Below, in pieces: positions 25,319 through 60,063 of a stretch of 64,000 bases of DNA; within the stretch, counting starts at the first letter, position 1, and each line of letters starts with the position of its first letter. This stretch comes from a virus. The stretch covers positions 1 to 64,000 of the IMG/VR virus record IMGVR_UViG_3300004886_000001. One strand, 5' to 3'. A program made the translations under genes and the position numbers. The notes beneath the pieces were generated by a model, which searched no databases, had not been told where the DNA came from, and saw nothing but the letters and a program-made list of their open reading frames with translations.

Positions 25319-25753
25319 TTAGCCTGACATTTCGTCTTGTTTAGATTTGATCGCTTTCACACAATCATCAAGCTCTGATCTTTTCCACCACCACCGGCCG
25401 TTGTATTTCCCCACTGGTGCACAAAACTTCGAACCGTATATAGTGCCCCTCTCAATGGCCGCCCAAACGGTGCGGCTAGACACATTGAGCCTGGTAGTGA
25501 CTTCTTCAATGTGGATATGGTCCTCGTAGAACTTTTTAATATCATCAATGAATTTCTGAGCATCTTCCCGGCTGTACATTGTATCTCTGCCACGGCATGG
25601 CTTTACAGTCGGCTCCGGTATTTCAAACCCGCACCACGACTGCTTATTGCACACCAGATAAGCAAACATCTGCCGGGTAACACCGATTTCAGTGTAAATA
25701 TCTTTCGACGTATAGAGTTCTTTACGCGGCAATTGAGTTCTCCATTTCAGCAA
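25319..25753 (-). CDS. Double HTH DNA-binding protein inside the head module (regulator or small-terminase candidate)
   Basis: 144 aa. Two MerR/excisionase-like HTH segments (IYTEIGVTRQMFAYLV; VTTRLNVSSRTVWAAIERGTIYG...WWWKRSELD). Overlaps the portal 3' end by 32 nt. Confidence 0.5.
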   Translation of the reverse strand: MLKWRTQLPRKELYTSKDIYTEIGVTRQMFAYLVCNKQSWCGFEIPEPTVKPCRGRDTMYSREDAQKFIDDIKKFYEDHIHIEEVTTRLNVSSRTVWAAIERGTIYGSKFCAPVGKYNGRWWWKRSELDDCVKAIKSKQDEMSG

Positions 25754-27815
25754 GCATGTCGAGTTTTTCCTGTCTCTCGGCTGCTCTGGCTTTCTCCTTC
25801 TCCGCTGCCAGCTTCACCTTTTCAGATTCAAGTTTTATCTGCTCAATCTCAGCTTTAATGGCTTCACTTTGTGGTCCGGTCTCAGTCTGAGCATCAACCA
25901 TCGTTTTCTGAGCTGCAGCCTGGGCCTGTTGTGCATGGCCCTCTGCTTGCGCTGCCTGAGCATTCTTCAGTCTGATGTCGGCCTCAACAGTGGCTTGCTC
26001 CATCTGCTGCTGTGCCTGCTGTGCCTGTTTCTGTGCTTCAACCATCTGCTGTACTTCTTCAGGTGTTTGCGGTGTCTGCTCGATCATGTTGAGTTTTTCG
26101 AGTTCTTCCTTGGCGCCCGGTATATCGCAGTTTTCAAGGTACAGTTTTATAAATATTCTAAGTTCCGCTTCGGCCTGTGGTGGCAACTGCCCCATCATGG
26201 TCTCGATACGATTCTGAGTCTGTGCGCGATAGCCTGCCGACGTTGAGATATCTGCAATCGTGATATGCATCTGAGCTTTCGTCAGGTTGTTACTGATAAC
26301 GCCGTCTGCAGTCATGTGGTTGAGCTTGATCTGTCGAGACCTGCCACCGAGCCCGGACCTGATATCAACATTTAGCTGGTGACTGCCCACATCGTTAATT
26401 TCCAGCTCGTGCAATACTTCAGCGACAATGTATTCAGTTTTGGTTTTATTGCCGAGTAGCACTGCCATGTTGGTGCTGCCGAGTTCGGCCAGGTTTTCAA
26501 TAGCACGGCCTGATTGCTGCCCCTCAGTTTGACCACTAAAAGAATGATAGATACCAGACACATCGCGTATTTCCTGCCGGGCATCCATCTTGATCGACTG
26601 CAGGTTCTGTAGGTTCTCCCACTCACGGATAATCATCACATCGCGTTTGATATCTGCAGTTTTATTAAGAGATATTATCCCGTCGCGGCGTAGTGCCTGT
26701 ATGCGTACTTCTTCCGCTGGATCACCCAACTGCAGCATAGATTGGTGCAGTGAACTCGGCTTAATAATAATCTTACAGGTGTCGAGAATGTGTAATTGCT
26801 CGTTAGTCACCTTGTTGTAAGTGTAAATCGGATCAATCATATCGTGTACGGGACCGTGGAATACGTTGGTACCGCTCTTACGATAACCACACATCGGTAT
26901 AAACGCCGGGTGTGCTGACTCATAGTCCGCGTAGTGGATCTTGATATGACCGAGAAACAACGACTTTTTAATCACGGATACTGGCGCATCGTACATATCA
27001 ACAATACGCTCTTGATCAACATGGCTTCCCGCCTCGACCACCGAACCATCGTCAAGTTCATACAATTCCCGCATTTCAGGTGTGCGTTCATAGACTTCAC
27101 GAACCGATAGCATTTTGCGGTCATCGTTGTAGAAATTGTGGTGCATCTCATAAAGGCTCTCACCCAGCTCATCGAACGACGAGGCTCCGGCCATAGAGTT
27201 GTAGCCACCCTCCAACCGCTCAATCAGCTTTTTATGTTTTGGCAAATAAACCTTCAGGTGCTCTGCTGTATAGAACTGCTCTCGACTTACCCACCGGCAG
27301 TTTTCAAAGCCACCTTTCATTGAATAAGTGTCCCACTTCATTTCCTGCCATGGCACATGCTCAACTACATACTTATGGCCAAGCCGGTTGCCGTTGCGTC
27401 TGACATTCACCCAGCCAATACCTGCTACCAGTTGATCAAGGTGTGCTGTAAGCGCTGCATCAGTGGCTTTAGTCATGCGCCAGTTACGATGTAACAGTGC
27501 ATTGGCTGCCTCTGCTATATCGCGGCTTTCCTCGTTATCAGGGCGTACCAGTTTGTCAGTGCGGAGTTTCTGCGAGTGACCCGCAACTGTCATTATGGTG
27601 GCTTTGCAGACATTGATTTTCTGAGTAGGCTTGCCGAGATTTTCATTGAATTCAATGGAATCAGGGCTCGCAACTTCACCGTCGAACACGTCATAGGCTT
27701 CAATTGCTGCCGCTCGCCACTCGTCATACATAGGCTGATCACGCATCAATTCATCTATCTTAATGCCTTCCTGTATGCCTAAGTGGTATTCAGATTTTGT
27801 AGTCGTTGTCTGCAT
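25722..27815 (-). CDS. Portal protein
   Basis: 697 aa. Position between the terminase and scaffold/capsid genes. C-terminal Q/A-rich coiled coil (QQAQQQMEQATVEADIRLKNAQAAQAEGHAQQAQAAAQ). Confidence 0.7.
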   Translation of the reverse strand: MQTTTTKSEYHLGIQEGIKIDELMRDQPMYDEWRAAAIEAYDVFDGEVASPDSIEFNENLGKPTQKINVCKATIMTVAGHSQKLRTDKLVRPDNEESRDIAEAANALLHRNWRMTKATDAALTAHLDQLVAGIGWVNVRRNGNRLGHKYVVEHVPWQEMKWDTYSMKGGFENCRWVSREQFYTAEHLKVYLPKHKKLIERLEGGYNSMAGASSFDELGESLYEMHHNFYNDDRKMLSVREVYERTPEMRELYELDDGSVVEAGSHVDQERIVDMYDAPVSVIKKSLFLGHIKIHYADYESAHPAFIPMCGYRKSGTNVFHGPVHDMIDPIYTYNKVTNEQLHILDTCKIIIKPSSLHQSMLQLGDPAEEVRIQALRRDGIISLNKTADIKRDVMIIREWENLQNLQSIKMDARQEIRDVSGIYHSFSGQTEGQQSGRAIENLAELGSTNMAVLLGNKTKTEYIVAEVLHELEINDVGSHQLNVDIRSGLGGRSRQIKLNHMTADGVISNNLTKAQMHITIADISTSAGYRAQTQNRIETMMGQLPPQAEAELRIFIKLYLENCDIPGAKEELEKLNMIEQTPQTPEEVQQMVEAQKQAQQAQQQMEQATVEADIRLKNAQAAQAEGHAQQAQAAAQKTMVDAQTETGPQSEAIKAEIEQIKLESEKVKLAAEKEKARAAERQEKLDMLAEMENSIAA

Positions 27816-27843: not shown

Positions 27844-28554
27844 TTAGTAATTATCTTTAAGGATTCTTCGGTTTGACTCGTGGTCCCAAACAAGCTGGAC
27901 ACCAGTTACCAGTGTTTGCTTTCCGTCCATAGTGAATATGCCGGTAGTCACATTGCTTGGACCGTTGTTTCCGAACGCCATGTATGTCGCCACACCGTCG
28001 TAACCATCAACGTCAACCGTATACAAAGTGCACGGTTTGAGTGTTTGTCTGGAAAGCACTGATTCTGGAAGTGTGATTGGCTCCTTAGACATCTCAGGTA
28101 TTTTTATGCTTTGAAGCTCGTCCAGTTGTTCGCGAATAGAGTCACGCTCTTGCTTCAACGTGTCATAAGCGTTGGCCTTGCTCTCTGATGATTCAAGGCG
28201 AGCTTTAAGCGACTGCATTTCCTGCATAGTGCTTTGCTGACCGCCTTTTGCAATTTCTTCGTCCTTTTCGCTAACTGCTTTACTGAGTTGCGTTACCTGG
28301 GTGGCTAGTGACTTGTTGTCTTCCTGGAGTTTTTGAATCTTCTCTGCCGACTCTGCTTCTGCCTGCTCCTTAGCAGATTTAGCCTGTGCGTCTGCTGCTT
28401 CCTGCATCTGCTTTTCTGCATTTTCTTTCGCCTGTAGTGCTTCCATTGCTTCGTCTTCGGCTTTTTTCTGTGCCTTTACCGCTTTCGCTGCTGCATCTTC
28501 CGCTGCCGCCTTAGCTTTGTTGGCTTCTTCAAGTTCTTTCTTAGGGTCACTCAT
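27844..28554 (-). CDS. Coiled-coil protein with small C-terminal beta domain, unknown role
   Basis: 236 aa. The first 150 aa are A/E/K/Q coiled coil. 4-nt overlap with the TerL stop. Confidence 0.5.
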   Translation of the reverse strand: MSDPKKELEEANKAKAAAEDAAAKAVKAQKKAEDEAMEALQAKENAEKQMQEAADAQAKSAKEQAEAESAEKIQKLQEDNKSLATQVTQLSKAVSEKDEEIAKGGQQSTMQEMQSLKARLESSESKANAYDTLKQERDSIREQLDELQSIKIPEMSKEPITLPESVLSRQTLKPCTLYTVDVDGYDGVATYMAFGNNGPSNVTTGIFTMDGKQTLVTGVQLVWDHESNRRILKDNY

Positions 28555-30233
28555 ATTGCTGCTCTCGCTTGTTTAGATGGATTCCAATTACTGGTAACTG
28601 TCACATCAGCACGTGACTTAACGTAGGCTGTTGCCTGTGCGCTATAGCCGAATGCATCTGATAAGTTGGATGCCCAGTTGTGTTCCGGTTCAGGCATAAA
28701 CATGCCCTTACTTTCATCGTACTCATGACGATACTGTTGCAGGCTTGTGAGTAGTCCGGGCTTTGTGTACTTGATTGCACCCCGGTAGTCGTCACGATCA
28801 CCTGTGTTGTCCACATCAAAATATGATATGTCCATGTGAATGCGCCCCGCTTCATAGCGGTCTATTGCGCTTGTCTTGTTTAGAACAGACTTGAGTTCGC
28901 CATCACCCTTGCCGCTGTCCTCCATCTCAAAATCTATTCCCCACCCGGCACACATCTCTGCACGTGTTTTACCGCCAGCGGTTAGTTCACGAACACCAAT
29001 GTCATGCGGTGCGAAGTGACTGCCATAGATATATTCCTTCTTTAACACCTGCCTGCAAGTGTCTTTAAGGTCTGAGAATTCTTCATAGAAGTAATCAATG
29101 TATCGGTAATAGAGTCCGTCAAACTGAAAGAACACTATCGACATTGCATTACCTTTCGATCTGCCCAAATCCCAAGCTGTGTGCACTAAATACTGTGGAT
29201 CGTATGGAACCTTGGTCAGTCGCTGCTCTTTACGCATAGACGTTATTTGCTTTGCGTAGATAGCACCTTTGATGATTGCTTTAAATGCTTCCTCTGGGCT
29301 CGACGGATGCTCTTTAAACATCGCCTCGCCTTGCTCCTCAGCTTTTTTGTAGTACCAGAACTTTTGCGGAGTCGTTAACTTGATTTTGTTGACGTCTTCA
29401 AGCTCTTTGAAGTAATCCACCATGTCTGCAGAGAATTGATACTCTTTGCTTGGTGGTGGCTCTGAGTTTCGCTTATCCTGAAACCAACTGAAAAAGAAGA
29501 ATTTACGATCAAACCGCGATAACGGATCGCCACGGAATTGCATCTCTTGTGCAATCTTGCAGGAGTTGTAGAAGTCACCTACCGGACCCTCTGCAGTTGA
29601 CTCAATGAACAGCTTTGAACCGTCGTGAAGCGAATTAAGAGAGCCTGCTTTAACTTCCTCGGCTTTTTGTGGTTGATAAGTGCAAAGGTGGCCGTATTCA
29701 GATATATGTAGATTCTTGAGCGTTCCCGACCGTGCAGAGGTAGTCACAAAAATGTTGCTTAAAAGATCCTCACCTTGGGACGCGCCGTTATTCAGCGATA
29801 GCGTCATTGCATCAGACTTAACCACCTTGGCCTGGTCGAGCATGAACGTGGGCAGGTTGTTAAATGCCAGTTTGATCTTCGAGTTAAAGAACTTACCGGC
29901 ATCCTCCCGCTTGTGCGCTATAACCGCCGAATCCTGCACCATGGCGAACAGTGTGTCGTCAAGAATCCAGATTTGTATAAGTGTCGTTAGTCCGTGTTGC
30001 CTCGATTTTAAGTAGATGTTCTGACTGTGCATGTTCGCAAGAACGATCTCTTGAACATGGTTTGGCTTGAAAGGCACCAGCCGTTGCTGCGCGTCAATTA
30101 TTTTGTACATGCCACTGCGCAACCTGAAATTACGGTCTTTCAGGTGTGATTGAATTATTGCAATGTTTTCTGCGGTGAGTTGCATGTAGTCAGACTGACA
30201 ATAAGCTGATAAGATACCTTTCGAGAATACCAT
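28551..30233 (-). CDS. terL: Terminase large subunit
   Basis: 560 aa. Walker-A-like LKSRQHGLTT, typical terminase size, first gene of the morphogenesis operon. The start may instead be the internal ATG at 30185. Confidence 0.85.
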   Translation of the reverse strand: MVFSKGILSAYCQSDYMQLTAENIAIIQSHLKDRNFRLRSGMYKIIDAQQRLVPFKPNHVQEIVLANMHSQNIYLKSRQHGLTTLIQIWILDDTLFAMVQDSAVIAHKREDAGKFFNSKIKLAFNNLPTFMLDQAKVVKSDAMTLSLNNGASQGEDLLSNIFVTTSARSGTLKNLHISEYGHLCTYQPQKAEEVKAGSLNSLHDGSKLFIESTAEGPVGDFYNSCKIAQEMQFRGDPLSRFDRKFFFFSWFQDKRNSEPPPSKEYQFSADMVDYFKELEDVNKIKLTTPQKFWYYKKAEEQGEAMFKEHPSSPEEAFKAIIKGAIYAKQITSMRKEQRLTKVPYDPQYLVHTAWDLGRSKGNAMSIVFFQFDGLYYRYIDYFYEEFSDLKDTCRQVLKKEYIYGSHFAPHDIGVRELTAGGKTRAEMCAGWGIDFEMEDSGKGDGELKSVLNKTSAIDRYEAGRIHMDISYFDVDNTGDRDDYRGAIKYTKPGLLTSLQQYRHEYDESKGMFMPEPEHNWASNLSDAFGYSAQATAYVKSRADVTVTSNWNPSKQARAAI

Positions 30234-30471: not shown

Positions 30472-31105
30472 GTCCATCAAGGTTGACGGTAGAGCCCTAC
30501 GCGCTGCTCAGAAATGCCAAGCGACAGACGATATTCGATGGTTCCTGAATGGAATATGCCTGCAGACAGATGGTCGCATAGAAGCCACAAACGGACATGT
30601 TGCGATCCAAATGAAAGATCAGTTTGAACTGACTGAACAGAAGTTGATCAAGTTTTATGAACAGTTTCCTGAAAATATACGGGACGTTGAACTTCAGTTT
30701 TTGACTGATGGGTATGGCGTTGCTATCTGCGAAGTTGAGCACCTTGAGATTGATGAAGAAGCTGAAGAAAACTATGTCGACTGGACTGAACGCAGGGCTG
30801 TTGCGTTTGAAATGGTTACTCCTGAAGCTGAGGGCAAATTTCCTAACATCTCTAACATAATTCCATCAGGCGAGAGCTTGCCAATAAAGAAGTTTTCCTT
30901 CCATTCAAATTATTTAGCGATCATCAAAGATGTTTTTGGTGCTGTTGGCGTTGATATGGAGCTTCATAGAGTAACTGAAGAAGGACCAATGCTCGTTAGT
31001 CCATCGAATCATTCAAATTATATTACTGGTGATGTCGTTGGTAAGGCGTCGTTGGTGATAATGCCGATGCGAATGTATGAGCCAAATGAGGCTATAAATC
31101 CATGA
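30464..31105 (+). CDS. Beta-sliding-clamp (DnaN)-like domain protein, truncated format
   Basis: ATDDIRWFLNGICLQTDGRIEATNGHVAI matches the DnaN pattern D.RYYLNG....(ATDGHRLA). Only 213 aa versus ~366 for DnaN. Confidence 0.5.
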   Translation: MTESIKVDGRALRAAQKCQATDDIRWFLNGICLQTDGRIEATNGHVAIQMKDQFELTEQKLIKFYEQFPENIRDVELQFLTDGYGVAICEVEHLEIDEEAEENYVDWTERRAVAFEMVTPEAEGKFPNISNIIPSGESLPIKKFSFHSNYLAIIKDVFGAVGVDMELHRVTEEGPMLVSPSNHSNYITGDVVGKASLVIMPMRMYEPNEAINP

Positions 31106-31626
31106 TTAGCATCGAACAGCTTTTCGCAGACCAGAAAGCATGGTCGTCTGAAACCTTCGGCGACCACATGGACCCTACCGGCGTTATTGATCACATCCGT
31201 AAGGAACTGGACGAAATTAAGGCAAAGCCTGATGATCCGGAAGAATGGGCTGATATGGCAATACTCGCGCTTGATGGTGCGTGGCGTAGCGGGTTGTCTA
31301 TGGTTGACAGGATGGCAAAAGCCTATAACGGGGTTTTGAATTCAGAGTTGAGCGCTATTGCAGATATGGATAGCGACTCCACCGGGATAGTCGAAAGCCT
31401 GATAGTGATAATCGAAAAAGCAATCGAAGGTCTACCAAAAGAGTCAAATTGGGGAGTTCTTTTAGGTGAGGCTCTAATCGGTTTACAACTGGCAGACCCT
31501 TACAGCAAGCCGCATGTACATATCGCTGCAAAGCAGGCTAAAAACCGCGAACGCAAGTGGCCGGATAAAGCCGATCAAGATCCCACCAAAGCCATTGAAC
31601 ACGTGAGGGATGACGATGAAGGTTGA
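31102..31626 (+). CDS. DUF550/MazG-like nucleotide pyrophosphohydrolase-family protein
   Basis: HIRKELDEIKAKPDDPEEWADMAILALDGAWRSG matches the remembered DUF550 (dATP/dGTP diphosphohydrolase N-terminal) signature. Confidence 0.5.
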   Translation: MISIEQLFADQKAWSSETFGDHMDPTGVIDHIRKELDEIKAKPDDPEEWADMAILALDGAWRSGLSMVDRMAKAYNGVLNSELSAIADMDSDSTGIVESLIVIIEKAIEGLPKESNWGVLLGEALIGLQLADPYSKPHVHIAAKQAKNRERKWPDKADQDPTKAIEHVRDDDEG

Positions 31627-36011: not shown

Positions 36012-36244
36012 GCCGTGCTCCTGGTGTGAGTTTCAATCCATTTAACAGCCCACAGTGGACAGTTTCAATATCAAAATCTAACCCTCGGGAACACAGGGAT
36101 TATGCGTGATTCGTGGTTATCTTAGTGGGCAAAATGTTAATTACATTTAATGGAATATGCGGAGCTTCGCAAGGCCTTTAGGCTCCTACGGGCGAAAATA
36201 GCCCTTATCCCCAACACAATAAAGCCGCTCTGTCAAAGAAGCGG

Positions 36245-36264
36245 AAATGGAAAGGTAGAGTGGG
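36245..36264. repeat. Intergenic motif copy 3 (core ATGGAAAGGTAG)
   Basis: AAATGGAAAGGTAGAGTGGG; a 12-nt core is shared with copy 1. Confidence 0.6.
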
Positions 36265-36423
36265 AAATTTGGGGAAATAATTTTTTGGGGGTGAGGGGCC
36301 GGAGATAATAATAATGAAGTAAGAACTTGATTGCCTGCGACAAAGGTATACCCCCCTCTTAATTATTTGCTACCCGGGTGCCGAATGGGGTGGAGCGAAG
36401 CGATTCTAACTAAGCAGTTGTAG

Positions 36424-36471
36424 TTGACCTGGCTGTTGGTGTTGACGTTGCAGTTGACGTTGTGTGTTGAC
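36424..36471. repeat. GTTGAC iteron cluster (4 copies; GTTGACGTTG twice)
   Basis: GTTGAC at 36424, 36441, 36453 and 36466. Lies inside an 840-bp ORF-poor region next to an AT-rich stretch (36300..36335). Confidence 0.75.
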
Positions 36472-36854
36472 CTTAGACAAACAAGCAAGCAGTCATTAGA
36501 CATCTGTTAAGGGTTTTGTGTTTTGGGTGTGAGGTACCCACCCCCTATAAGCTGTGGCTGCTGAGGGCTTGTGAGGAGCGTACAACGGGCATAGCGCCAC
36601 CCCTTCTAACATGGTCTTACCAAGCCTCTCCTGGGTTTCCAGCGCCTCTGGCAGTCGTGTGTGTGTCGGGCGTTGATAGCTACAAGGAGGTGGTGGGTTT
36701 GCTTTGGGGATTACTTTGAGAGCTAATTTATTCTTGGACGTGTACCTAAATCCCCCCTTTTTCCCCAACAATCCCAGCAGCACCTACAGTCACTCCTTGC
36801 CTTTTCCCATCCAATTCGCGCATTTCCTCTGATTCCGCTACGCGCTACCTGAGG

Positions 36855-37085
36855 TTATTTCGGGTTTATTGGGGTATTTGTATGGCTTTGGTGGGTTTCT
36901 CGCTCTGAATCGCTTATGGTCGAGTCTACTGGTACGCGTATTCTCACGAGGTATTCATTCCCGTTTTTCTCGATGCCTTCGAGGTTTGTGTCTGGTTCTT
37001 TATCCCTGTAGTGGCTCATGACTCTCATTGCGATAATGCCTTGAGCTTCTTCCTCGCTGACGGATGCGGTGATTACTCGCTTCAT
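36855..37085 (-). CDS. Hypothetical protein
   Basis: Start set at ATG 37085 (ATGA overlap with the upstream stop); 76 aa. Confidence 0.55.
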   Translation of the reverse strand: MKRVITASVSEEEAQGIIAMRVMSHYRDKEPDTNLEGIEKNGNEYLVRIRVPVDSTISDSERETHQSHTNTPINPK

Positions 37086-40320: not shown

Positions 40321-40431
40321 TTCAGGGACTCGCTACCGGTGAAGCGCCGTGTATCTGCAATGAGAACACTCCGCATTTCATGGACTGTTATTCAAGAAAC
40401 TGCCGGAGGAACCGGTAACAGGCACAAAAAA

Positions 40432-40454
40432 GCCCGGCACATGTCCGGGCTTTT
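40432..40454. terminator. Bidirectional intrinsic terminator
   Basis: AAAAAA-GCCCGG-CACATGT-CCGGGC-TTTT between convergent genes. Confidence 0.75.
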
Positions 40455-40484
40455 ACTTCTCAAACTGCTAATCATCTATTGGTG

Positions 40485-40823
40485 CTAGTTGAACACCAAC
40501 TTATCCGGCAACAGAGTCCGGGCATTCTCACACCCAGACATACCACCAGCACCTATCCCGGTAACTTCGACAATCTGATCAATCGATCCGATGACGGGTG
40601 ATGCCAGGTTTGCCAGTTCAGTTGCTTCATTGTCGATATCAACTGCAAATAGCGGTGCTGTGTATTCAATCGCTTTAACTGGTAGCACAGTGTTCACTGT
40701 ATTACCTGCTTCTGCAATCAGCTCTGTTGCCTGCCCTTCATAACCGACGTCAGCGAGTGCCGGTACCGATAGGCTTGCAAGTGAACCAATTGCGATTGTC
40801 AGCATTAAAATATACGTTTTCAT
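40485..40823 (-). CDS. Secreted small protein (Sec signal peptide), moron-like
   Basis: MKTYILMLTIAIGSLASLSVPALA|DVGY. GAGGA RBS. Lies directly downstream of the tRNA-like gene. Confidence 0.6.
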   Translation of the reverse strand: MKTYILMLTIAIGSLASLSVPALADVGYEGQATELIAEAGNTVNTVLPVKAIEYTAPLFAVDIDNEATELANLASPVIGSIDQIVEVTGIGAGGMSGCENARTLLPDKLVFN

Positions 40824-40849: not shown

Positions 40850-40932
40850 TGGAGCCCAGTGCCAGACTTGAACTAGCGACCGTTATATGGGCATTTACCG
40901 CATACCTGCTCTACCAACTGAGCTAACCGGGC
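40850..40932 (-). tRNA. tRNA-like gene, atypical (candidate anticodon GGU/Thr; encoded CCA)
   Basis: GCCCGGT/ACTGGGC acceptor stem, TAGCTCAGTTGGTAGAGCA D-arm, GCTAG-TTCAAGT-CTGGC T-arm, 3' TCCA. The anticodon loop GCGGTAA has C at position 33, and the variable region is 12 nt. Confidence 0.6.
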
Positions 40933-40963: not shown

Positions 40964-41644
40964 TTATTTTGGAAATGACGAACTAACCACTTCTGCAGCT
41001 CCCCACTGGCTGGCAAATGCTTCAGACCAGCCGGGATATGTCTCACTGCGAAGTTTCCACCGATCAGCCGATGGTGTTAGTTTATTCTGGCCGCTATCGG
41101 TCTGATTGCCCCATCGCTGCACATAGCCGCGACCATCTTTAGACGGCACCAGTCTTGGCGGACAAAATTCAGTCATCACCAACCGTTGCAACCCTTTCAA
41201 CCACAAACAGGTTTTTTTACTGGCATCGTCGCCGTACTCAAAAGGCTGTATGAATTGATCTGGTTCGCGCCACATGGTTGACAATGAACCAACCGGGTTC
41301 TCTATTGCCACCTTTTCAATCGGTGCGTTGTATAGCTCGTCAACAAATTCAATAGCCTCTATTCTTGCCTGACGTCGATCTTCACCAACAAGTGTTCCGG
41401 GTTTTACCTTCTGGTGATATGGACCGTCTTTAAATGCCCACGATGCAGACCCTGTCAGGTACGTGCAATCAGGATGCGCAATCATCATGTCCCAACCATC
41501 GTCAAGTATTTCTCTAACATCGCCTTGGTGGTGTGGTCCGGGTACGTCCGTCGGTAACAGATCACAACTAACAGCATCGTGACCATGTCTCAGAAATGCA
41601 TCGCGTGTTCTGCCACTGGTTTCACATGCGATAAGAACTTTCAT
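40964..41644 (-). CDS. Short C5-cytosine DNA methyltransferase-like protein
   Basis: MKVLIACETSG (motif I-like), HPDCTYLT (PxC motif IV-like), IENPVG (ENV motif VI-like); 226 aa. Confidence 0.5.
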   Translation of the reverse strand: MKVLIACETSGRTRDAFLRHGHDAVSCDLLPTDVPGPHHQGDVREILDDGWDMMIAHPDCTYLTGSASWAFKDGPYHQKVKPGTLVGEDRRQARIEAIEFVDELYNAPIEKVAIENPVGSLSTMWREPDQFIQPFEYGDDASKKTCLWLKGLQRLVMTEFCPPRLVPSKDGRGYVQRWGNQTDSGQNKLTPSADRWKLRSETYPGWSEAFASQWGAAEVVSSSFPK

Positions 41645-41910
41645 GCGGCTGATCTCACGTTCGGAAGTTTCTGTTTTCGTACTTCATAAACGTGTTTTTT
41701 GATAATGACGAAATCCTTCTCCTTGCCCTTAGGTGAATAAAGGCGGCCGTTGTGTGCAATGTATCCAGCCTGGAGCCATTGACTGACCTGCGCCCGAGAT
41801 ACACCGCAGGCACGAGCAAAGGCGGATTGATTTCCGCCATAGTGCTTTTCTATGTAGTCGAGTAGTGGCATTAGTGACGCTGATCTTCTAAGACGCTTCT
41901 CAATTTCCAT
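41641..41910 (-). CDS. Cro/YdaS-like HTH DNA-binding protein
   Basis: GGNQSAFARACGVSRAQVSQWL is a typical HTH. Confidence 0.6.
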   Translation of the reverse strand: MEIEKRLRRSASLMPLLDYIEKHYGGNQSAFARACGVSRAQVSQWLQAGYIAHNGRLYSPKGKEKDFVIIKKHVYEVRKQKLPNVRSAA

Positions 41911-41916
41911 ATGCTC

Positions 41917-42129
41917 TCACCACCACCCATGTCTTTCCAGCAAATCCAAGTCCCGATCCGAGCAATTTTCTTCCATCTTTCCCTGTAAGTGGTTTCTCAA
42001 CTCATCCACCGCATCATCAATATGACCAGCTCGGGCATTCCATGCAAACAACCAGTGGTCGCCTTGGTCTTCGTAGAGCTTCCCGAATTCCAACTTCCAC
42101 TTGCCATCTTTTGAAATTTGCGTTGCCAT
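41917..42129 (-). CDS. Hypothetical protein
   Basis: 70-aa ORF. Confidence 0.55.
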   Translation of the reverse strand: MATQISKDGKWKLEFGKLYEDQGDHWLFAWNARAGHIDDAVDELRNHLQGKMEENCSDRDLDLLERHGWW

Positions 42130-46876: not shown

Positions 46877-47671
46877 TTATTGCTCCTTTAACCAAGTTTC
46901 CCACTTTGTGGGTGATATGAATGATCGAGATTCAACCTCAAATATTTGACTGAGTTTTTCACCAGTCCAAGCCACCAGATTGCGTGACCTGATTCCCATA
47001 GCCCACCGGATCGCGTCTTTTTCGTTGTCGATTTCAATCGGGTTGCCACGTGACGAGCGGCTGGCCTTGTATATCGCTAGCCACCCATCGGAATGCTGTT
47101 TGGAGTGCCAGTCTTGCTGCATACCGACACCCTGAAATATTGGCTTGTTACTACCGGCGCCTGTACCGCCTGACGTTTTAGCTTCTGCAGTCAGTATGTG
47201 CGCGTAGACGTTCTTGTCATTTGTAGTGTCATCAAACCCACCAGTGACAATGCACGGCTGGTGGCGGCACCACTCTTGCCATTCGTCATCATGTTGAGTG
47301 CCGGATATCTTCTGTAGTAACTCAGTGTTGTAGAACAAACCGTCTTTGATACAGTTGCGCCAGAAATTACCGTGCTCACCTTTCGCCTTTGCTGGTGCTT
47401 TTGGTTTGGCCTGCTCTACTATTGCATCACTGTACGGACTAACTACATTGCCACTGGCATCACGAAAACGCATGTATAACTCTGTTGTCATGCCCTTGCG
47501 TCCACGCAAATAAGCTAAGTCCTCTTTTTCCATCTGGAACTTGCCCCAGCAGCCGGAGCTATCAGACTCACCGAATCCCATAAGCTGGCTATCAATGAAT
47601 ACAAACTGATCTTCGCCACGTGCGCCAACTTCGTGTTCGTCGTCCATTAGGTTGTCGAAATCGTCAGCCAT
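46877..47671 (-). CDS. Hypothetical protein, possibly DUF968-like (Cys/His motif)
   Basis: 264 aa; WCRHQPCIVTG...VYAHI...NKP...WHSKQHSDGW. Confidence 0.3.
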   Translation of the reverse strand: MADDFDNLMDDEHEVGARGEDQFVFIDSQLMGFGESDSSGCWGKFQMEKEDLAYLRGRKGMTTELYMRFRDASGNVVSPYSDAIVEQAKPKAPAKAKGEHGNFWRNCIKDGLFYNTELLQKISGTQHDDEWQEWCRHQPCIVTGGFDDTTNDKNVYAHILTAEAKTSGGTGAGSNKPIFQGVGMQQDWHSKQHSDGWLAIYKASRSSRGNPIEIDNEKDAIRWAMGIRSRNLVAWTGEKLSQIFEVESRSFISPTKWETWLKEQ

Positions 47672-47961
47672 TAGAACGGCGTGTCGTCGTCAAATTTAAC
47701 TGGTGCCGGTGCGCTTCCCTGTGCATTGCCTCCGCCGTTTTTGCGGTCGTTATCGAATATCCCGCACATAACACCACCCTTGCCTTTTGGGTTTAGTATT
47801 CGCTGTTTAAGAGCAACACCAGCGAGATTAACCTCCGGCTTTAGAATCGCGTATTCGCCCTTATCACTCGACAGAATTACACCTATTTCGACATACTCCT
47901 TTTTTTCCTTTCCTTCCCTGTCTTTGTAGGTGCCTACTGCTGCCATTAGCTTTTTAGCCAT
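47671..47961 (-). CDS. Short SSB-like protein with SSB-type acidic tip
   Basis: 96 aa, Gly-rich linker and C-terminal FDDDTPF (compare bacterial SSB DDDIPF). Confidence 0.55.
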   Translation of the reverse strand: MAKKLMAAVGTYKDREGKEKKEYVEIGVILSSDKGEYAILKPEVNLAGVALKQRILNPKGKGGVMCGIFDNDRKNGGGNAQGSAPAPVKFDDDTPF

Positions 47962-48002: not shown

Positions 48003-48749
48003 TTATTGTCGTTTAATCAAGTCCATATACGACAGATTTCGCTCTCTATCTTCGCTCATGTTGGGACAAGCGACCCGGATGTTCATATTGTCACCCGATA
48101 ACTGGTGTGCAAGACCGTATGCGAACGACTGCCCGAGGTAATCATCATTAGATGAGCCTATCACAGTGATGTCTGTAACCTTCTCTGGTGGACTCCACGT
48201 CAACAATCGCTCATGGTCAAGACAAGCGACAACACCACCTGTATACCGCTGGTTGAGCTGTAGCCACGCCAGACAATCCCATATAGAAGATCCCACCGCT
48301 ATCTGATGATCTGTACGCTTGCGCAACCATACACCACCACCCTCAATATCTCTCGGTGCCGGTGTTGATCTGTCAGTAGACGCAATGCCTTGGTCGGTAT
48401 CTCTAAGGTATGTTATGTGGTAGGTACATCGCTTGCCGTGTTTGTCGCGTAGATTCCACAGCATGGCCGGAAACTGACCAACATGTTTTTTATTTCCCTG
48501 ACCATCATCTTTATAAAAGTCCACTTCTTTTTTGTATCCAACGTCGGTACCTGGCTCGATGTTAATGCCCTCCTGCCTTAGATACTGCTCACAGATAGTG
48601 CCTGATATCGGGAATACATCTTGGCTCAACTTTTCAATCAGTCGCTCTGCCCTTGCTTCTTCGCTGTTTAATTGCTCCATAAATTTCTTCGCCTGTATGT
48701 AATCGAATGTTGCTTTAATGTGTGGTGGATAGCGTTCAAGCCTACTCAT
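48003..48749 (-). CDS. Toprim-domain (primase-associated) protein
   Basis: IAVGSSIWDCLAWLQL and DITVIGSSNDDYLGQSFAYGLA resemble the two Toprim motifs. 4-nt overlap with the helicase gene. Confidence 0.45.
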   Translation of the reverse strand: MSRLERYPPHIKATFDYIQAKKFMEQLNSEEARAERLIEKLSQDVFPISGTICEQYLRQEGINIEPGTDVGYKKEVDFYKDDGQGNKKHVGQFPAMLWNLRDKHGKRCTYHITYLRDTDQGIASTDRSTPAPRDIEGGGVWLRKRTDHQIAVGSSIWDCLAWLQLNQRYTGGVVACLDHERLLTWSPPEKVTDITVIGSSNDDYLGQSFAYGLAHQLSGDNMNIRVACPNMSEDRERNLSYMDLIKRQ

Positions 48750-50509
48750 GCTGACGCTCGCTGTTGCTTACGATACTCTTTTGCTTTCTGAGCCAGATAT
48801 GCCTTCACGTCTTTGTTCAGACCCTTCGACGGTAATGACGACCAACCACGCGGCGGCCATTCTCCAAACCGTTCTTTGTACACTGCTGCAGCGTAACCAC
48901 CTTTAAAACCTCGGGCCTCGCCGAATCCCTTTAACCGTTGATACACGTCTTTTCTGAACTCCATCTGCTTATGGTGCAAAGTTAGCTTCAGATCCGGCAT
49001 GTCCATCGCTTTCATAGGCACGTCACCATGTACATAAGTGCGCTCTGGCGGTCGCTCATGGCAGAACCCACAGTGAGAACAAACCCGGTCCTGTGACTGG
49101 CTTATGGCTCCACAGTCGGCGCAATTCTTAGGATCGAAGTACTTCGCTCGTTCAAACTGGAAAGCGTAGTCTGTACACCACTGTTTGATTCCTTTTGCAT
49201 CACCAGAGTAATCAATCTCGTTTTTCAGGTTGTCAGTGCATTTAAGATTTACTTCGTCCAACTCTCGCGCAATCACCGATGTCTTGTTACTTAGCCAGTC
49301 GGTCACTGTGTACCTGTATCGCTGCTTTGCTTCAGGATCTGTCTTTTCCTGTTTGGATTTACGCTTGAGCAATACAGGTTCTCTGGCGTCCATCTCGATA
49401 GGCCAACCGACCTTACCGATACATGAGCACATATCCAGTACATAACCGATCTCTTTACCTTCAAAATATCGCATCAGTCTGCCAAGCATCTGCCACAGCC
49501 TGTGTTCTGTTCGTACTGGTCGCGCCAATATTCCGCACTCAACACTCGGGACGTCTACACCTTTGATAAAACGATCAACCGTCACCATGACCTGAATGCC
49601 GTCACCCTTCGGCCAGGTATCGAATGATCTCAGTGAATCCTTATCGCGTGAATCCTTTGCAACCTTGCCCTCATTGTGTACATCGCGTGAGTGATAAGCG
49701 TATGCCTTAAAACCCTGTTGATTAAAATCACTGGCAAGTAACACGGCATCATCAATGGTTGGAACGAATACCAGAGTTTTCTTTTTATCCATCTGCTTTT
49801 CAATCCAGAACGGAATAACGTCACGCGCTATTTGCTTTTTAAAGCTCTCGCTGGCTGATTTGGTAGTTACTTCGCCCTTGTCCTTGCCGCTTCTACTCAT
49901 AACAAGTACACGCTCGTCAAACTCTGCCTCTGGCTCCCATCCAGTCAGACCGACTATCACATCACGGTCGAGCAATTCTTGATAAGTAGCGCCGACCACG
50001 ATGTCAGTGTAAATGTCACCAATACCTTTGACCTGTGGTGTGGCAGTTAGTCCAACCACCATATTGTCGCCCATCAGTTCGTCGGCTGTTTCATACAGAC
50101 AGTGGCACTCGTCATAAATTTGAAACGGGAAGTGAATACCGGACGCCTCGAATACTTCCGAACGGTTAGGCAGTGTCTGAATGCTTGCGACTTGAATCGG
50201 TGCTGACAGATTACGGCGGGTTGAGCCCTGAATAATTCCACAATCTAAACCCAGTTTCATAAATGCCTTATAGGTTTGCTCTACCAGATTGATCTGGTCG
50301 CAGACAAACAGCATTCTTGCGCCCTGCACACCTTTGAACTTTTCGATCATTTCAAGAAACATCACTGATGCTGTACGGGTCTTGCCTGCAGCGGTTGGCA
50401 TCTGTAAAACAGCACGTGGTTTTAATTCAGCTTTTTTAAGCATATCCAGGGTGTCGAATACCTGCTGTGCAGCGCGTGGCTGGTGTTGCCATTTTTCCTC
50501 TGGAGTCAT
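48746..50509 (-). CDS. Superfamily-2 DEAD/DEAH-box DNA helicase
   Basis: PTAAGKTR (Walker A), IYDECH (DExH), LTATP (motif III), QMLGRLMR (motif VI), C-terminal CADCG...CSHCG zinc ribbon. Confidence 0.85.
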
Positions 50510-50712
50510 ACGTCAAGCACTCCCTTTTCAGCCAGTTCATGATTGGCTTTGCCAGCGTTAATACGGTCCTGTATCTCATTGCGGTGTACAGTGACCTCCT
50601 TTGGTGCAGTAACACCTATCCGCACTATGCCGTTACTAATCCCCAACACTGTCACGTGGATGTTTTCGTTGATTACGATTGATTCGGATGTTTTTCTAGT
50701 AAGTATTAACAT
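50506..50712 (-). CDS. csrA: CsrA/RsmA-family RNA-binding translational regulator
   Basis: [47 protein letters not shown] aligns along its length with E. coli CsrA ([47 protein letters not shown]). ATGA overlap with the helicase. Confidence 0.85.
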
Positions 50713-50748
50713 TTGTCTTGCTCCTTTGTGATTTAAAAAGCTGGTTGG

Positions 50749-50955
50749 TTAGGGTGATTCGGCAATTGCTGTATCTATGTCGGAATTTTCTTGCTGTGCT
50801 CTTAGATCTGAAAATTCCTCACTTGTTATAGATCGCATTGCTTGGCATTCAGGATAAGTACACATCGCGTAGTAACCACCGCCGTTATTGTCGTTACAAA
50901 TCTCCCAGTCATGGTCACATTCATGGTTACCGGCGTCGGGTATTGGTTTACTCAT
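50749..50955 (-). CDS. Small Cys/His protein
   Basis: 68 aa; HECDHDWEIC...CTYPEC. Confidence 0.5.
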   Translation of the reverse strand: MSKPIPDAGNHECDHDWEICNDNNGGGYYAMCTYPECQAMRSITSEEFSDLRAQQENSDIDTAIAESP

Positions 50956-51772
50956 AACGTCTTGCTCCGTTGTTTAAAATTTTAGAACCTTCTTTATCAA
51001 CCAAAATGCCGCTCTCAATAAGCCGCTCTCTATGAAATTGATTCAAAATGTCGATAAGGTTGGTCTGTGTTGGTGCTTTTGTGCTAGCAATTGATTGAAT
51101 ATCATTGAGCGGTTTTGAATCACTACGTTTGTCAGAACGAAATTGCAAAACCAGCCACAACCCTCGTTTGAAGTAGTTGTATACGGTCCTCGCAGATCGC
51201 CCTAACCGCTTCGATATCGTTGCAATACCGATCCCCTGCGAACGCATCTCAATAGCCACCAGTGCATTCCTATCTGCCTGTGCACTACGCTTATCTGATG
51301 CTGCTTGGGTTTGTTTGCGCCACTGCTGCGGCGTCTTGTGGTGTCGCTTCACTTTGCGCGAAACGTCGGGCCTGACAATGTCGGTTAAGTGCAGCTCAAT
51401 CGCCTGGTTACCGGTAATTCCAAAATTGTATTGATATCGCCAGCCAGCCCACTTGGTCCGAACATCCCAACCGCCACCTTTACGAACACCGCAACGCATT
51501 TGTGCGAAATGTCGGTTATTCACGATGGTTTGAATGGCTCGGCCGGTCCAGCCAGTCATCTTCCCGTCAAGACACGCGTCGGCTGCGACCTTGCAAAGCT
51601 GGTAGTGCTCGGTGTTGGAACTGGCAAACTGCCCTGCGGCCACAGCGATAGCCTCTAGTGCGAGCGCTCTGTCGGGTGGTGGATACGCTTTGAATAGCGT
51701 GATCAGCTCGCCATAGCGATTCTGGCCCCTGAGAGAGTGACCACCTGACAGCCTTTTGGCTCGGAGGTTCAA
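50948..51772 (-). CDS. DNA-binding protein with C-terminal Hin/resolvase-type HTH (replication or transcription factor candidate)
   Basis: 274 aa; MRSQGIGIATISKRLGRSARTVYNYFKRG. Confidence 0.5.
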   Translation of the reverse strand: MNLRAKRLSGGHSLRGQNRYGELITLFKAYPPPDRALALEAIAVAAGQFASSNTEHYQLCKVAADACLDGKMTGWTGRAIQTIVNNRHFAQMRCGVRKGGGWDVRTKWAGWRYQYNFGITGNQAIELHLTDIVRPDVSRKVKRHHKTPQQWRKQTQAASDKRSAQADRNALVAIEMRSQGIGIATISKRLGRSARTVYNYFKRGLWLVLQFRSDKRSDSKPLNDIQSIASTKAPTQTNLIDILNQFHRERLIESGILVDKEGSKILNNGARRYE

Positions 51773-52040: not shown

Positions 52041-52069
52041 GTTTACGAGGGAATGGATACTGCTATAAT
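52041..52069 (+). promoter_or_regulatory. Sigma70-type promoter with extended -10 (TTTACG-N16-TGcTATAAT)
   Basis: Perfect TATAAT at 52064..52069 preceded by TGc. -35 TTTACG at 52042..52047. Confidence 0.55.
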
Positions 52070-52075
52070 TAAAGC

Positions 52076-52174
52076 ACATGGTTCGTGCTTGTTCCTACAT
52101 TCAATCGTACCGACCATAATCCGAGTTTCGCAAGCTCGGGTCGATTAAGGGCTGGCATCTGCTGGCCCTTTTTT
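52076..52174 (+). ncRNA. Candidate ~100-nt antisense small RNA
   Basis: Predicted TSS about 7 nt after the -10. Internal hairpin CGAC..CCGAG-N9-CTCGG..GTCG (52111..52143). Terminator AAGGGC-N12-GCCCTT plus TTTTTT (52147..52174). Opposite in strand to all neighbouring genes. Confidence 0.4.
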
Positions 52175-52250
52175 GTAAAGGTAGCACAACTTTTTGAATT
52201 GCGCTAACTTCTATATGACGTTATTTCAAGGTTCGTGCCGGGGTGACGTA

Positions 52251-56229: not shown

Positions 56230-56508
56230 TTATGTCGTCCGTGATATAAAGGCTTGGAAGGCAGAATGCCGTTTGTTGTAGTAGCCGGGGTGCACGAATG
56301 ATGGCTTATATTTAGTCATGGCGATTAAATCCAGGTAGTACTTTTCTGGTATTTTTCCGTTGCGGCCCCAGCTAAAAACTGTATCTGTTGGAACCCGGAA
56401 TCGCTCACCAACTACTGCAGGACCACCAGCAGCCTTGATTACCTTCTTAACCCGCAGAATATTTTCTGCTTTTTGTTTTTTTTCCGACTCAGTTAACGGT
56501 CTGCCCAT
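56230..56508 (-). CDS. cro: Cro-like HTH regulator
   Basis: 92 aa, AGGPAVVGERFRVPTDTVFSWGRNGKIP. Divergent from the CI-like gene. Confidence 0.55.
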   Translation of the reverse strand: MGRPLTESEKKQKAENILRVKKVIKAAGGPAVVGERFRVPTDTVFSWGRNGKIPEKYYLDLIAMTKYKPSFVHPGYYNKRHSAFQAFISRTT

Positions 56509-56534
56509 CTCAAATCAATATGCTTTAGTAAAAC

Positions 56535-56547
56535 GGCATTATGACGT
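56535..56547. promoter_or_regulatory. Operator site GGCATTATGACGT (overlaps the -10 of the leftward promoter)
   Basis: Inverted copy at 57043..57055 (12/13). A related TGCATTATCAAC lies at 56557..56568. Confidence 0.6.
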
Positions 56548-56567
56548 GAAAAGGAATGCATTATCAA
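56538..56567 (-). promoter_or_regulatory. Leftward early promoter TTGATA-N18-CATAAT
   Basis: Read on the minus strand upstream of the cro-like gene. Confidence 0.5.
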
Positions 56568-58841: not shown

Positions 58842-59071
58842 TGAGCCGAAGAACCAAGGCACGAAAAAAAGCATGGGCAAAAGAACTGAAATTGAAGAAG
58901 TCAGTTGCCGACTACATGAATGCACGACGTGAGGGTTTAATCGCTGCCATCAACCATGCTGAAATTTCACAAGATGAACGAGATAAAATTATTGCATCCC
59001 TTGGTGCTCCACTTGAAGTTAACCATCTCGGAGAGTTTGTAGATAGTTTTGTTTGGGAGCAGACGAACTAA
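58841..59071 (+). CDS. Small basic protein
   Basis: Start set at ATG 58841 (TAATG coupling). Convergent with int. Confidence 0.5.
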   Translation: MSRRTKARKKAWAKELKLKKSVADYMNARREGLIAAINHAEISQDERDKIIASLGAPLEVNHLGEFVDSFVWEQTN

Positions 59072-60063
59072 AGACGCTCTGCCAGTTCTTCTGCGGTCGG
59101 ATTGTAGTAAACCATGGCCATCTTAACGTCACGCCAACCCATCACCGCGCATAGCTCCAGCACATCATACAGTTTGGCTTTTACCATACGGCTCGCTGCT
59201 TCGTGCCTGGAGTCGTGGAAATTTAATCCAGATATCCCTACCCTGCCGCGAGCGCGGCGAAATAGAGTGTCGACAGTCGCGGCTCTGACTTTAAATAGTC
59301 GGTCGCTTCTACCATCTGCCAAAAGCCGGTTTATTAGTCGAATCGCTTCTGGGTTGAGTGGTACATCTCTGGGATCGCCGTTTTTAGTATCTTCCAAGTG
59401 TACGAATTTACGGTCAATGTGTAGATTCTCGATTTTAACCGCGCAAATCTCACCGCAACGCATACCGGTCTCTATGGCCAGCAACCAAGCAATACCGACC
59501 TCCTGGGATAGCGTTTCTACCGGATCTGAATACGAATCAAGGTTTTTGCAGATCAGATCAATTTCAGCTTGTGTAATGCGTCTACGACGGGGTTTCCCGG
59601 CCTTTGGCTTGTCTACCAGCTCGATAGGGTTATGAGCCATCCAGCGCCATTTACGGGCATATCTGAGAGCCTGAGACAGATCGCCCATCTCTCGCTTAAT
59701 GCTGGAGTCTTTCATCCCCCGATCACGTTCGGATTGAATCCAGTCCTCAATGTCTTCGTGACCAATGGCAGCGAGCTTCAACCTGGCTATCGGATGGCGT
59801 TTCAGTTTTTTTATACGAATGGTGGTTTCGCGTTCGCTTTTTTTACCGGGTACCACTTCGTCAATGTATCGGTCGAGTGCATCAGCGACGGTTTTACCTG
59901 TTGGCTTGCCGCGCTTTTCAGCAATCAGAATCATCTCACGCTGGTATGAATTGGCCTCTCGCAGCGTATCGAATTGTTTGCTACCTAATCGCCTACCTTT
60001 GTAGATCGGCTCGGCTTTGTATTTTATGCCTGACTTGGTTTGCTTGCGGATCGGTTTGGGCAT
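59068..60063 (-). CDS. int: Tyrosine recombinase/integrase
   Basis: ETGMRCGEI (Arg), HDSRHEAASRM (H-x-x-R), GWRDVKMAMVYY (catalytic Tyr); 331 aa. Confidence 0.9.
   Translation of the reverse strand: MPKPIRKQTKSGIKYKAEPIYKGRRLGSKQFDTLREANSYQREMILIAEKRGKPTGKTVADALDRYIDEVVPGKKSERETTIRIKKLKRHPIARLKLAAIGHEDIEDWIQSERDRGMKDSSIKREMGDLSQALRYARKWRWMAHNPIELVDKPKAGKPRRRRITQAEIDLICKNLDSYSDPVETLSQEVGIAWLLAIETGMRCGEICAVKIENLHIDRKFVHLEDTKNGDPRDVPLNPEAIRLINRLLADGRSDRLFKVRAATVDTLFRRARGRVGISGLNFHDSRHEAASRMVKAKLYDVLELCAVMGWRDVKMAMVYYNPTAEELAERL

Follow-up and report, generated by a model that had tools for sequence, protein, structure and literature searches.

A CsrA-family gene overlapping a helicase gene in a predicted early replication operon of a tailed phage

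CsrA-family regulators encoded by phages are a known kind of protein, because surveys of their genes and a knockdown experiment precede the present analysis. Sobrero and Valverde (2020) listed 30 csrA-positive phages (PMC7366521). From a survey of GenBank and IMG/VR, Campa et al. (2021) put forward an anti-CRISPR role, on the ground that RsmA represses cas mRNAs (PMC8450108). For the phage homologues catalogued in this way, the functions are largely at the stage of proposals (PMC7366521, PMC8450108). The sole functional result on a phage csrA that was found in the literature is that of Adler et al. (2025), where knockdown of the csrA homologue of the Escherichia coli phage PTXU04 led to smaller plaques (PMC11879866). 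In the Bcep22-like phage JC1, the gene for a divergent, possibly virion-associated CsrA is placed between those for the portal and the capsid (PMC9144972). The best-studied model for a mobile CsrA is the plasmid homologue RsmQ, which is reported to take global control of host translation (PMC9928087). Here we describe a csrA homologue in positions 1 to 64,000 of the IMG/VR virus record IMGVR_UViG_3300004886_000001, a stretch of 64,000 nucleotides (nt) referred to below as the window. It is an open reading frame (ORF) of 68 amino acids (aa) with an ATG start at 50506..50712 on the minus strand. What is new here is a further example of a phage CsrA, a new phage lineage and a particular linkage of csrA to a helicase gene, and no new kind of system. 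The novelty implied by a first-pass annotation made from the sequence of the window is therefore low, phage-encoded CsrA having been described already (PMC7366521, PMC8450108, PMC11879866).

The assignment of the 68-aa product to CsrA was examined with curated family models and solved structures. The protein matched the Pfam family CsrA (PF02599) with 79.5 bits (E=1.7e-22, model positions 1-52/53), the gathering score being 27 bits, and it exceeded the cut-offs of two NCBIfam equivalogs, NF002469 (80.9 versus 73 bits) and TIGR00202 (80.5 versus 70.1 bits). Its PHROG match was phrog_9500, 'CsrA-like regulator' (E=6e-25). Residues 1-57 aligned without gaps to Protein Data Bank (PDB) entries 2jpp (Pseudomonas fluorescens RsmE) and 1y00 (E. 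coli CsrA) with E values of about 3e-15, the phage protein being 59% identical to the former and 52.5% identical to the latter. The similarity to CsrA is thus far above chance at the level of sequence. The first-pass call of a 68-aa CsrA at 50506-50712 is borne out by the Pfam, NCBIfam, PHROG and PDB alignments alike. Its claim that the protein aligns along its whole length holds for residues 1-57 and fails for the last ~11 residues, which aligned to nothing. The first-pass annotation had described a C-terminal extension that differs from host CsrA. Since CsrA homologues span 57-98 aa and have unalignable tails, the C-terminal tail is better seen as normal variation within the family.

The residues that matter for RNA binding in this family are retained. 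L4 in strand beta1 and R44 in strand beta5 are critical for RNA binding by CsrA (PMC7652899), and the gapless alignment showed both of them kept together with L2, R6, K7, V40, V42 and I47. The GxxAPKEV loop is conserved relative to RsmE and E. coli CsrA, and in an alignment of 28 sequences the phage protein kept 16 of the 16 invariant columns. It deviates at usually conserved, non-critical positions, where V8G9 is replaced by TS and the changes G15N, E45N and Y48Q are found. The claim of an intact RNA-binding surface therefore passed the alignment check, with L4, R44 and all invariant columns in place. An AlphaFold2 monomer model had a predicted local distance difference test (pLDDT) value of 67.7, which is moderate, and showed three strands (residues 2-7, 19-26 and 29-35) and one helix (44-63). 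The family fold consists of five beta-strands and a C-terminal helix in an interdigitated homodimer; because a monomer model cannot capture such a dimer, support for the fold was drawn from the sequence matches to the solved dimers. A six-frame hmmsearch of the window found no CsrA-like ORF other than the one at 50506..50712 and no divergent CsrA of the Bcep22 type in the structural module. The GC content of csrA (44%) is close to that of the phage (47%), so there is no sign of recent capture. Taken at the sequence level, this is a bona fide CsrA-family gene whose product appears to have an intact RNA-binding surface.

When compared with the closest described systems, the phage protein belongs to the same family, by curated thresholds, as the chromosomal CsrA, RsmA and RsmE proteins of Gammaproteobacteria, and it shares their RNA-binding residues. 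It differs from E. coli CsrA and RsmE in its 11-aa unalignable tail and in the substitutions at non-critical positions. Chromosomal csrA sits at the alaS-csrA-tRNA locus, whereas the phage copy lies inside an early replication operon and, unlike the chromosomal Csr/Rsm systems, has no cognate sponge RNA that an Rfam scan of the window could find near it. The catalogued phage CsrA/RsmA proteins, such as 'RsmM' of the Pseudomonas aeruginosa F116/D3112 type and those of Vibrio and Providencia phages, are likewise encoded by small early-region genes of tailed phages (PMC7366521, PMC8450108). In comparison with those phages, the window phage is of another lineage and has a direct 4-nt overlap between csrA and a superfamily 2 (SF2) helicase gene. 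A further likeness is to PTXU04 (PTXU04_00028) and the Bcep22-like phages (JC1 gp47), podophages that have, in addition to csrA, a gene for a giant polyvalent protein (PMC11879866); the window encodes such a protein of 2770 aa. However, the CsrA proteins of the Bcep22 group and PTXU04 are divergent, with ~25-36% identity to E. coli CsrA (PMC7366521), whereas the window CsrA is canonical, and JC1 csrA lies in the structural module (PMC9144972), whereas the window csrA lies in the replication module. RsmQ of the P. fluorescens plasmid pQBR103 is likewise a mobile CsrA-family regulator, and it is reported to act on host mRNAs and to shift host behaviour (PMC9928087). RsmQ is plasmid-borne and expressed during stable carriage (PMC9928087), in contrast to the window csrA, which is predicted to be an early lytic phage gene.

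Searches of the phage collection by tblastn found CsrA-like genes in 88 records, mostly from Pseudomonas and Vibrio phages, with 49-56% identity to the window protein. In the genuine phage records inspected (Vibrio, Providencia, Pseudomonas and Bacillus), the surroundings of csrA are early or regulatory and include cI, helix-turn-helix (HTH), RecT or YqaJ genes, and the direct 4-nt overlap of csrA with an SF2 helicase gene was absent from the five genuine records inspected. The top match labelled as a phage, CAKLQH020000034.1 ('Acinetobacter phage MD-2021a'), proved to be a contig of a bacterial chromosome with the host alaS-thrA-csrA locus. The two matches ranked after it were also set aside as phage evidence, because CAKLQF020000006.1 is labelled with that organism too and AGRM01000002.1 is a record of 691 kb from Salmonella enterica. 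Inclusion of these three records would swell counts of phage csrA.

The surroundings of csrA were read from the sequence and from domain and profile matches. The features of the leftward operon, all on the minus strand, are as follows.

56230..56567 (-): likely start of the leftward early operon, comprising a promoter-like site and the first gene; TTGATA-18-CATAAT at 56567..56538 has 10 of 12 matches, and the assignment is a prediction.
50948..51772 (-): 274-aa HTH protein upstream of csrA in the same operon; HTH_23, 24.9 bits; ~97% nucleotide identity in two related contigs, L001 and L002.
50749..50955 (-): 68-aa Cys/His-rich ORF, the immediate upstream neighbour of csrA and an exchangeable cassette; no Pfam or PHROG match.
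50713..50748 (-): spacer of 36 nt with the csrA Shine-Dalgarno sequence (AAGGAG, strong, 8 nt before the ATG) and one GGA.
50506..50530 (-): overlap of the csrA stop and the helicase start; the 3' end of csrA contains the Shine-Dalgarno sequence of the helicase gene (GGGAG, 10 nt before the ATG); identical in L001 and L002.
48746..50509 (-): SF2 DNA helicase, 587 aa, with a Cys-rich C-terminal region; ResIII, Helicase_C and DEAD (Pfam) and phrog_16 'DNA helicase'.
48003..48749 (-): primase-like protein with DUF7146 (Pfam, 48.4 bits) and Toprim_3 (sub-threshold).
47671..47961 (-): 96-aa protein with the C-terminus DDDTPF, directly after the primase-like gene; its sole family match, phrog_37570, has no function assigned.

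The plus-strand letters TCAT at 50506-50509 place the csrA stop codon TGA at 50508..50506 and the helicase start codon ATG at 50509..50507, so that the two genes share the 4 nt ATGA, as had been noted in the first pass. The start of the 587-aa ORF is fixed because its ResIII match begins at residue 8. The nearest PDB entries to this helicase are XPBII and RadD; in NCBIfam it matched RadD and type I restriction R subunits, all far under the cut-offs, and no DnaB-family match was present among its domain and profile results. The earlier description of a replicative helicase in a replication cluster is thus correct as to a helicase gene and a replication module, and is corrected as to type, the protein being of the SF2 (XPB/RadD-like) kind and not of the DnaB kind. 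The start of the primase-like gene overlaps the helicase stop by 4 nt. The DDDTPF end of the 96-aa protein resembles the acidic C-terminal tip of the bacterial single-stranded DNA-binding protein (SSB), and we take this protein to be probably SSB-like. Since a helicase gene, a primase-like gene and an SSB-like gene follow csrA, 'replication module' is a fair name for the cluster, in which the leftward order is HTH protein, small ORF, csrA, SF2 helicase, Toprim primase-like protein and SSB-like protein.

Two claims about this arrangement did not survive. csrA had been regarded as the first cistron of the cluster; it is not, because two genes of the same strand, encoding the 274-aa HTH protein and the 68-aa protein, lie ahead of it, the spacer before csrA measures only 36 nt and no promoter was detected there. 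The ATGA overlap had been treated as a special feature, and it proved to be generic. Among the 77 same-strand junctions of the phage, 38 overlap, 19 of them by exactly 4 nt, which makes 4 nt the commonest junction. A scan for sigma-70 consensus matches found no minus-strand promoter or terminator at 50.7-54.7 kb and likewise none flanking csrA at 50.5-52.0 kb, which is a weak negative, as the promoter and terminator scans relied on crude consensus matches. The operon probably starts near 56.5 kb, where it faces a divergent rightward ERF/YqaJ operon, and csrA probably lies ~5.8 kb into it.

Relatives of the locus provided a view of which parts are held together. One protein cluster, P0001, shares 94% identity with the window CsrA, the runner-up being at or below 71%, and it is carried by two metagenome contigs from the European Nucleotide Archive (ENA), L001 and L002, of ~1.5 kb each. 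Both show ~97% DNA identity to the window on either side and keep the ATGA junction of csrA and helicase. Between the HTH gene and csrA, an unrelated 77-aa ORF (L001, 643-876; L002, 554-787) replaces the 68-aa Cys/His-rich ORF. The spacer is replaced as well, and homology returns exactly at the csrA ATG, which marks a recombination boundary. Because the junction is retained and homology resumes at this codon, csrA and the helicase gene appear to be kept as a unit while the cassette upstream is exchanged. The csrA genes differ from each other by eight codons, four of them synonymous and four non-synonymous (I18V, I29K, T35K and N45K), none of the latter at an invariant column; eight differences are too few for a selection test. 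The retention of csrA and of the ATGA junction despite the upstream swap nevertheless suggests selection. Several homologues of the next rank have comparable surroundings. The gene for P0019 immediately precedes that for an AAA_24 ATPase, and its module also encodes DNA polymerase A. The gene for P0011 is accompanied by genes for a YqaJ exonuclease and a VRR_NUC nuclease and by small ORFs, and the gene for P0002 overlaps both of its neighbours. By their predicted contents, these are phage-like early, replication or recombination operons.

We propose that csrA encodes a functional CsrA/RsmA-family RNA-binding protein of a temperate phage, which is expressed early with the replication genes and regulates translation via GGA sites. 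We estimate the probability of this reading at about 55%. Family membership, the key residues, the phage context, the position in the operon, the overlap and the conservation of the junction in relatives were directly established. The timing of expression, the RNA targets and the physiological outcome are what we infer. CsrA would be produced alongside the replication proteins from the onset of the lytic programme, and ribosomes terminating on csrA would be handed to the helicase start. The protein would form a homodimer with two beta1/beta5 RNA-binding faces and bind GGA motifs, typically ones that overlap a Shine-Dalgarno sequence, so that its targets would be GGA sites at ribosome-binding sites of the host and perhaps of the phage. 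It would add to the host pool of CsrA, past the buffering provided by host sponge RNAs, and the outcome would be a shift to a 'CsrA-high' state. In characterised hosts such a state entails repression of stationary-phase, storage, biofilm and some defence mRNAs (e.g. cas). Because both Shine-Dalgarno sequences hold a GGA and delivery of ribosomes to the helicase would be coupled to termination, the protein may in addition have a secondary effect on the replication genes that limits itself. Mobile global post-transcriptional regulators are a plausible route for phages and plasmids to control host physiology and immunity; to the question of phage CsrA function, the present instance adds only positional information.

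Several observations weigh against this proposal. The first-pass annotation had proposed a search for GGA-rich 5' regions, and the counts in the translation-initiation regions of the phage proved to be ordinary. The mean over 103 gene starts was 1.46 GGA per region from -80 to +12, and there was 1 at csrA and 2 at the helicase gene. The single GGA at the csrA start lies inside the Shine-Dalgarno sequence. At the helicase start, one of the two GGAs lies in the Shine-Dalgarno sequence and the other 46 nt away, upstream, within ACAGGAC; both are outside stable hairpin loops, and the fold had a z-score of +0.55. CsrA homologues with conserved motifs have been found to split into functional classes in a heterologous assay (PMC13443453), so that a conserved sequence need not imply an identical range of targets, a caveat for every reading considered here. 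Finally, the crude consensus scans are compatible with an internal promoter before csrA, which may therefore exist.

These same GGA sites are at the centre of the alternative that fares best, in which the phage CsrA acts mainly on phage mRNAs and exerts feedback on the replication module through the GGAs of the csrA and helicase Shine-Dalgarno sequences. If csrA translation were repressed, helicase translation would be lowered as well, via the overlap. Each of the two Shine-Dalgarno sequences contains a GGA, but this trinucleotide is inherent to any AGGAG-type Shine-Dalgarno sequence and hence uninformative. The spacing of the helicase GGAs falls inside the range of 10-63 nt that a CsrA dimer can bridge (PMC7652899), whereas the csrA start has one site only, and the sites are outside predicted hairpin loops in folds no better than shuffled. 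There are precedents, in that E. coli CsrA represses its own translation from a site overlapping the Shine-Dalgarno sequence (PMC7652899) and repression by CsrA through translational coupling is known for iraD (PMC7652899). The junction is identical in L001 and L002; however, because it lies within coding DNA, its conservation cannot count as independent support, and a 4-nt overlap is the default junction of this phage genome. Although autoregulation of csrA may occur, we consider it unlikely that feedback on the phage's own genes is the main role.

Slightly less probable, by our estimate, is that the protein is an anti-defence factor, the extra CsrA repressing translation of host immune genes, such as those of CRISPR-Cas, early in infection. 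This possibility is argued from precedent. In Serratia, CRISPR-Cas systems of types I and III are repressed by RsmA, which binds cas mRNAs, and the same authors proposed phage RsmA homologues as possible anti-CRISPRs (PMC8450108). Co-expression with replication genes early in infection, if it occurs as we propose, would suit the timing. The argument nevertheless rests wholly on analogy, and Pfam and PHROG scans did not recognise another anti-defence gene adjoining csrA. Moreover, it is a special case of the reprogramming of the host proposed above and provides no distinct mechanism.

It is doubtful, and a little more so than the preceding possibility, that csrA is a 'moron' of lysogenic conversion, whose expression from the prophage would alter carbon metabolism, motility or biofilm formation of the host in a way that favours the lysogen. 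An integrase gene at 59068-60063 marks the phage as temperate, the csrA of Bcep22-like phages has been termed a moron (PMC9144972), and the cassette directly upstream of csrA is exchangeable. Against these points, no promoter or terminator of its own was detected flanking csrA in the crude scan, the gene overlaps the helicase gene by 4 nt deep inside an early lytic operon, and its GC content (44% versus 47% for the phage) matches that of its neighbours. This combination suggests that csrA is not a prophage-expressed moron. The finding of a canonical-looking CsrA wired into the early replication operon of a temperate phage supports a role in lytic development over one in lysogenic conversion.

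A more speculative proposal is that the phage CsrA is part of a circuit that senses the Csr state of the host, that is, the balance of free CsrA and sponge RNAs, which tracks nutrition and growth phase, and feeds it into phage decisions. It concerns a second region of the window. With both strands scanned, the densest 200 nt for GGA were 41901-42100 (-), which hold 12 GGA and are coding, at the 3' end of a 70-aa ORF. The gene at 41641-41910 for a Cro/YdaS-like HTH protein has 7 GGA in its -80 to +12 region, the highest of the 103 gene starts. The cluster at 41895-42020 (-) may be a CsrA-responsive leader of this gene; its GGAs are largely NNG-GAN codon junctions of the 3' end of the 70-aa ORF (41917-42129), the corrected P is ~0.08 by a naive Poisson estimate, which is marginal, and the leader is without a stable fold, the GGA-dense part at 41920-42000 included. 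If the circuit were real, the GGAs of the csrA and helicase Shine-Dalgarno sequences and of the 7-GGA leader would tie the dosage of replication genes to the availability of CsrA, and the choice between lysis and lysogeny might be CsrA-dependent too. We regard such a circuit as a long shot. Least probable of all is that csrA serves the phage in no way, as a passenger or a gene in decay, because, although four of the eight codon differences are non-synonymous and three of these are to lysine, such differences are too few to infer relaxed selection, the reading frame is intact with all invariant residues and NCBIfam equivalog scores over threshold, and the gene was kept with an identical junction while its upstream neighbour was swapped.

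A sponge RNA of the phage's own, which the first-pass annotation had suggested looking for, did not emerge from the window. No RNA of the CsrB, CsrC, RsmX, RsmY or RsmZ type matched in Rfam at the gathering threshold or at E<=5, and the scan of the window returned only tRNA and noise. The non-coding 'hub' at 36 kb, singled out in the same annotation as a place to search, is a stretch of ~840 bp without a convincing ORF (36012-36855) upstream of an HTH_17 (Xis/AlpA-like) gene. It contains a purine-rich segment with 7 GGA in 95 nt at 36745-36840 (-), had no Rfam match and was on a par with shuffled sequence in its folding (z = 0.4 and 0.0). GTCAAC/CGTCAAC direct repeats of iteron-like character lie at 36420-36475. 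Because of these repeats and the lack of a significant fold, the stretch resembles an origin or operator more than a sponge RNA, and 36012-36855 may be such an origin or operator region. A candidate small RNA at 52042-52182 (+) would run antisense to a gap between genes of the leftward early operon. Behind a sigma-70-like promoter (TTTACG-16-TATAAT, preceded by TG), it would be ~107 nt long with three hairpins, the last being a GC-rich stem followed by T6; the fold is -39.3 kcal/mol with z = -4.19. Since its loops are without GGA, it is not a CsrA sponge.

The remainder of the window was examined for the identity of its carrier, with the following features.

7340-15652 (-): giant 'polyvalent' protein of 2770 aa in the structural region, with InPase (inorganic pyrophosphatase), LPD5, LPD1 and LPD39 domains.
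22979-24280: major head (capsid) protein.
25722-27815: portal.
28551-30233: large terminase subunit (TerL).
59068-60063: tyrosine integrase.

Genes for an internal virion protein and a lysozyme are present as well, and by its predicted genes the window, which is part of a contig of 70,681 bp, belongs to a tailed phage. Because it encodes an integrase, ERF and YqaJ, the phage is temperate. A megablast search of the window against phage, E. coli and plasmid collections found no near-identical DNA. The portal is only ~27% identical to the portals of 933W-like Shiga toxin (Stx) phages; a search with it returned one match in IMG/VR, at 21% identity, and no relatives among GTDB genomes, and a search with the helicase found no relatives in IMG/VR and JGI metagenomes. 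Judged by these comparisons, the phage belongs to a new, previously unsampled lineage. The best named match of the integrase, at 57%, was to a Chromatiales bacterium from Bugula neritina, which is too little to name a host. The practical value of the locus is limited, as the lineage is known only from the present contig and two short fragments (L001 and L002).

Three further observations concern the rest of the genome. A phage-borne tRNA-Thr(GGT) gene lies at 40850-40932 (-), distant from the integrase gene. About 350 nt downstream of it, at 40424-40504 (-), a sub-threshold Rfam match resembling Trp_leader scored 30.8 bits (gathering score 41, E=0.028) and probably reflects no more than a hairpin. 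A gene for a PF04447 dATP/dGTP pyrophosphohydrolase (DUF550/MazZ-like) is found at 31102-31626 (+), in a rightward block beside the terminase gene.

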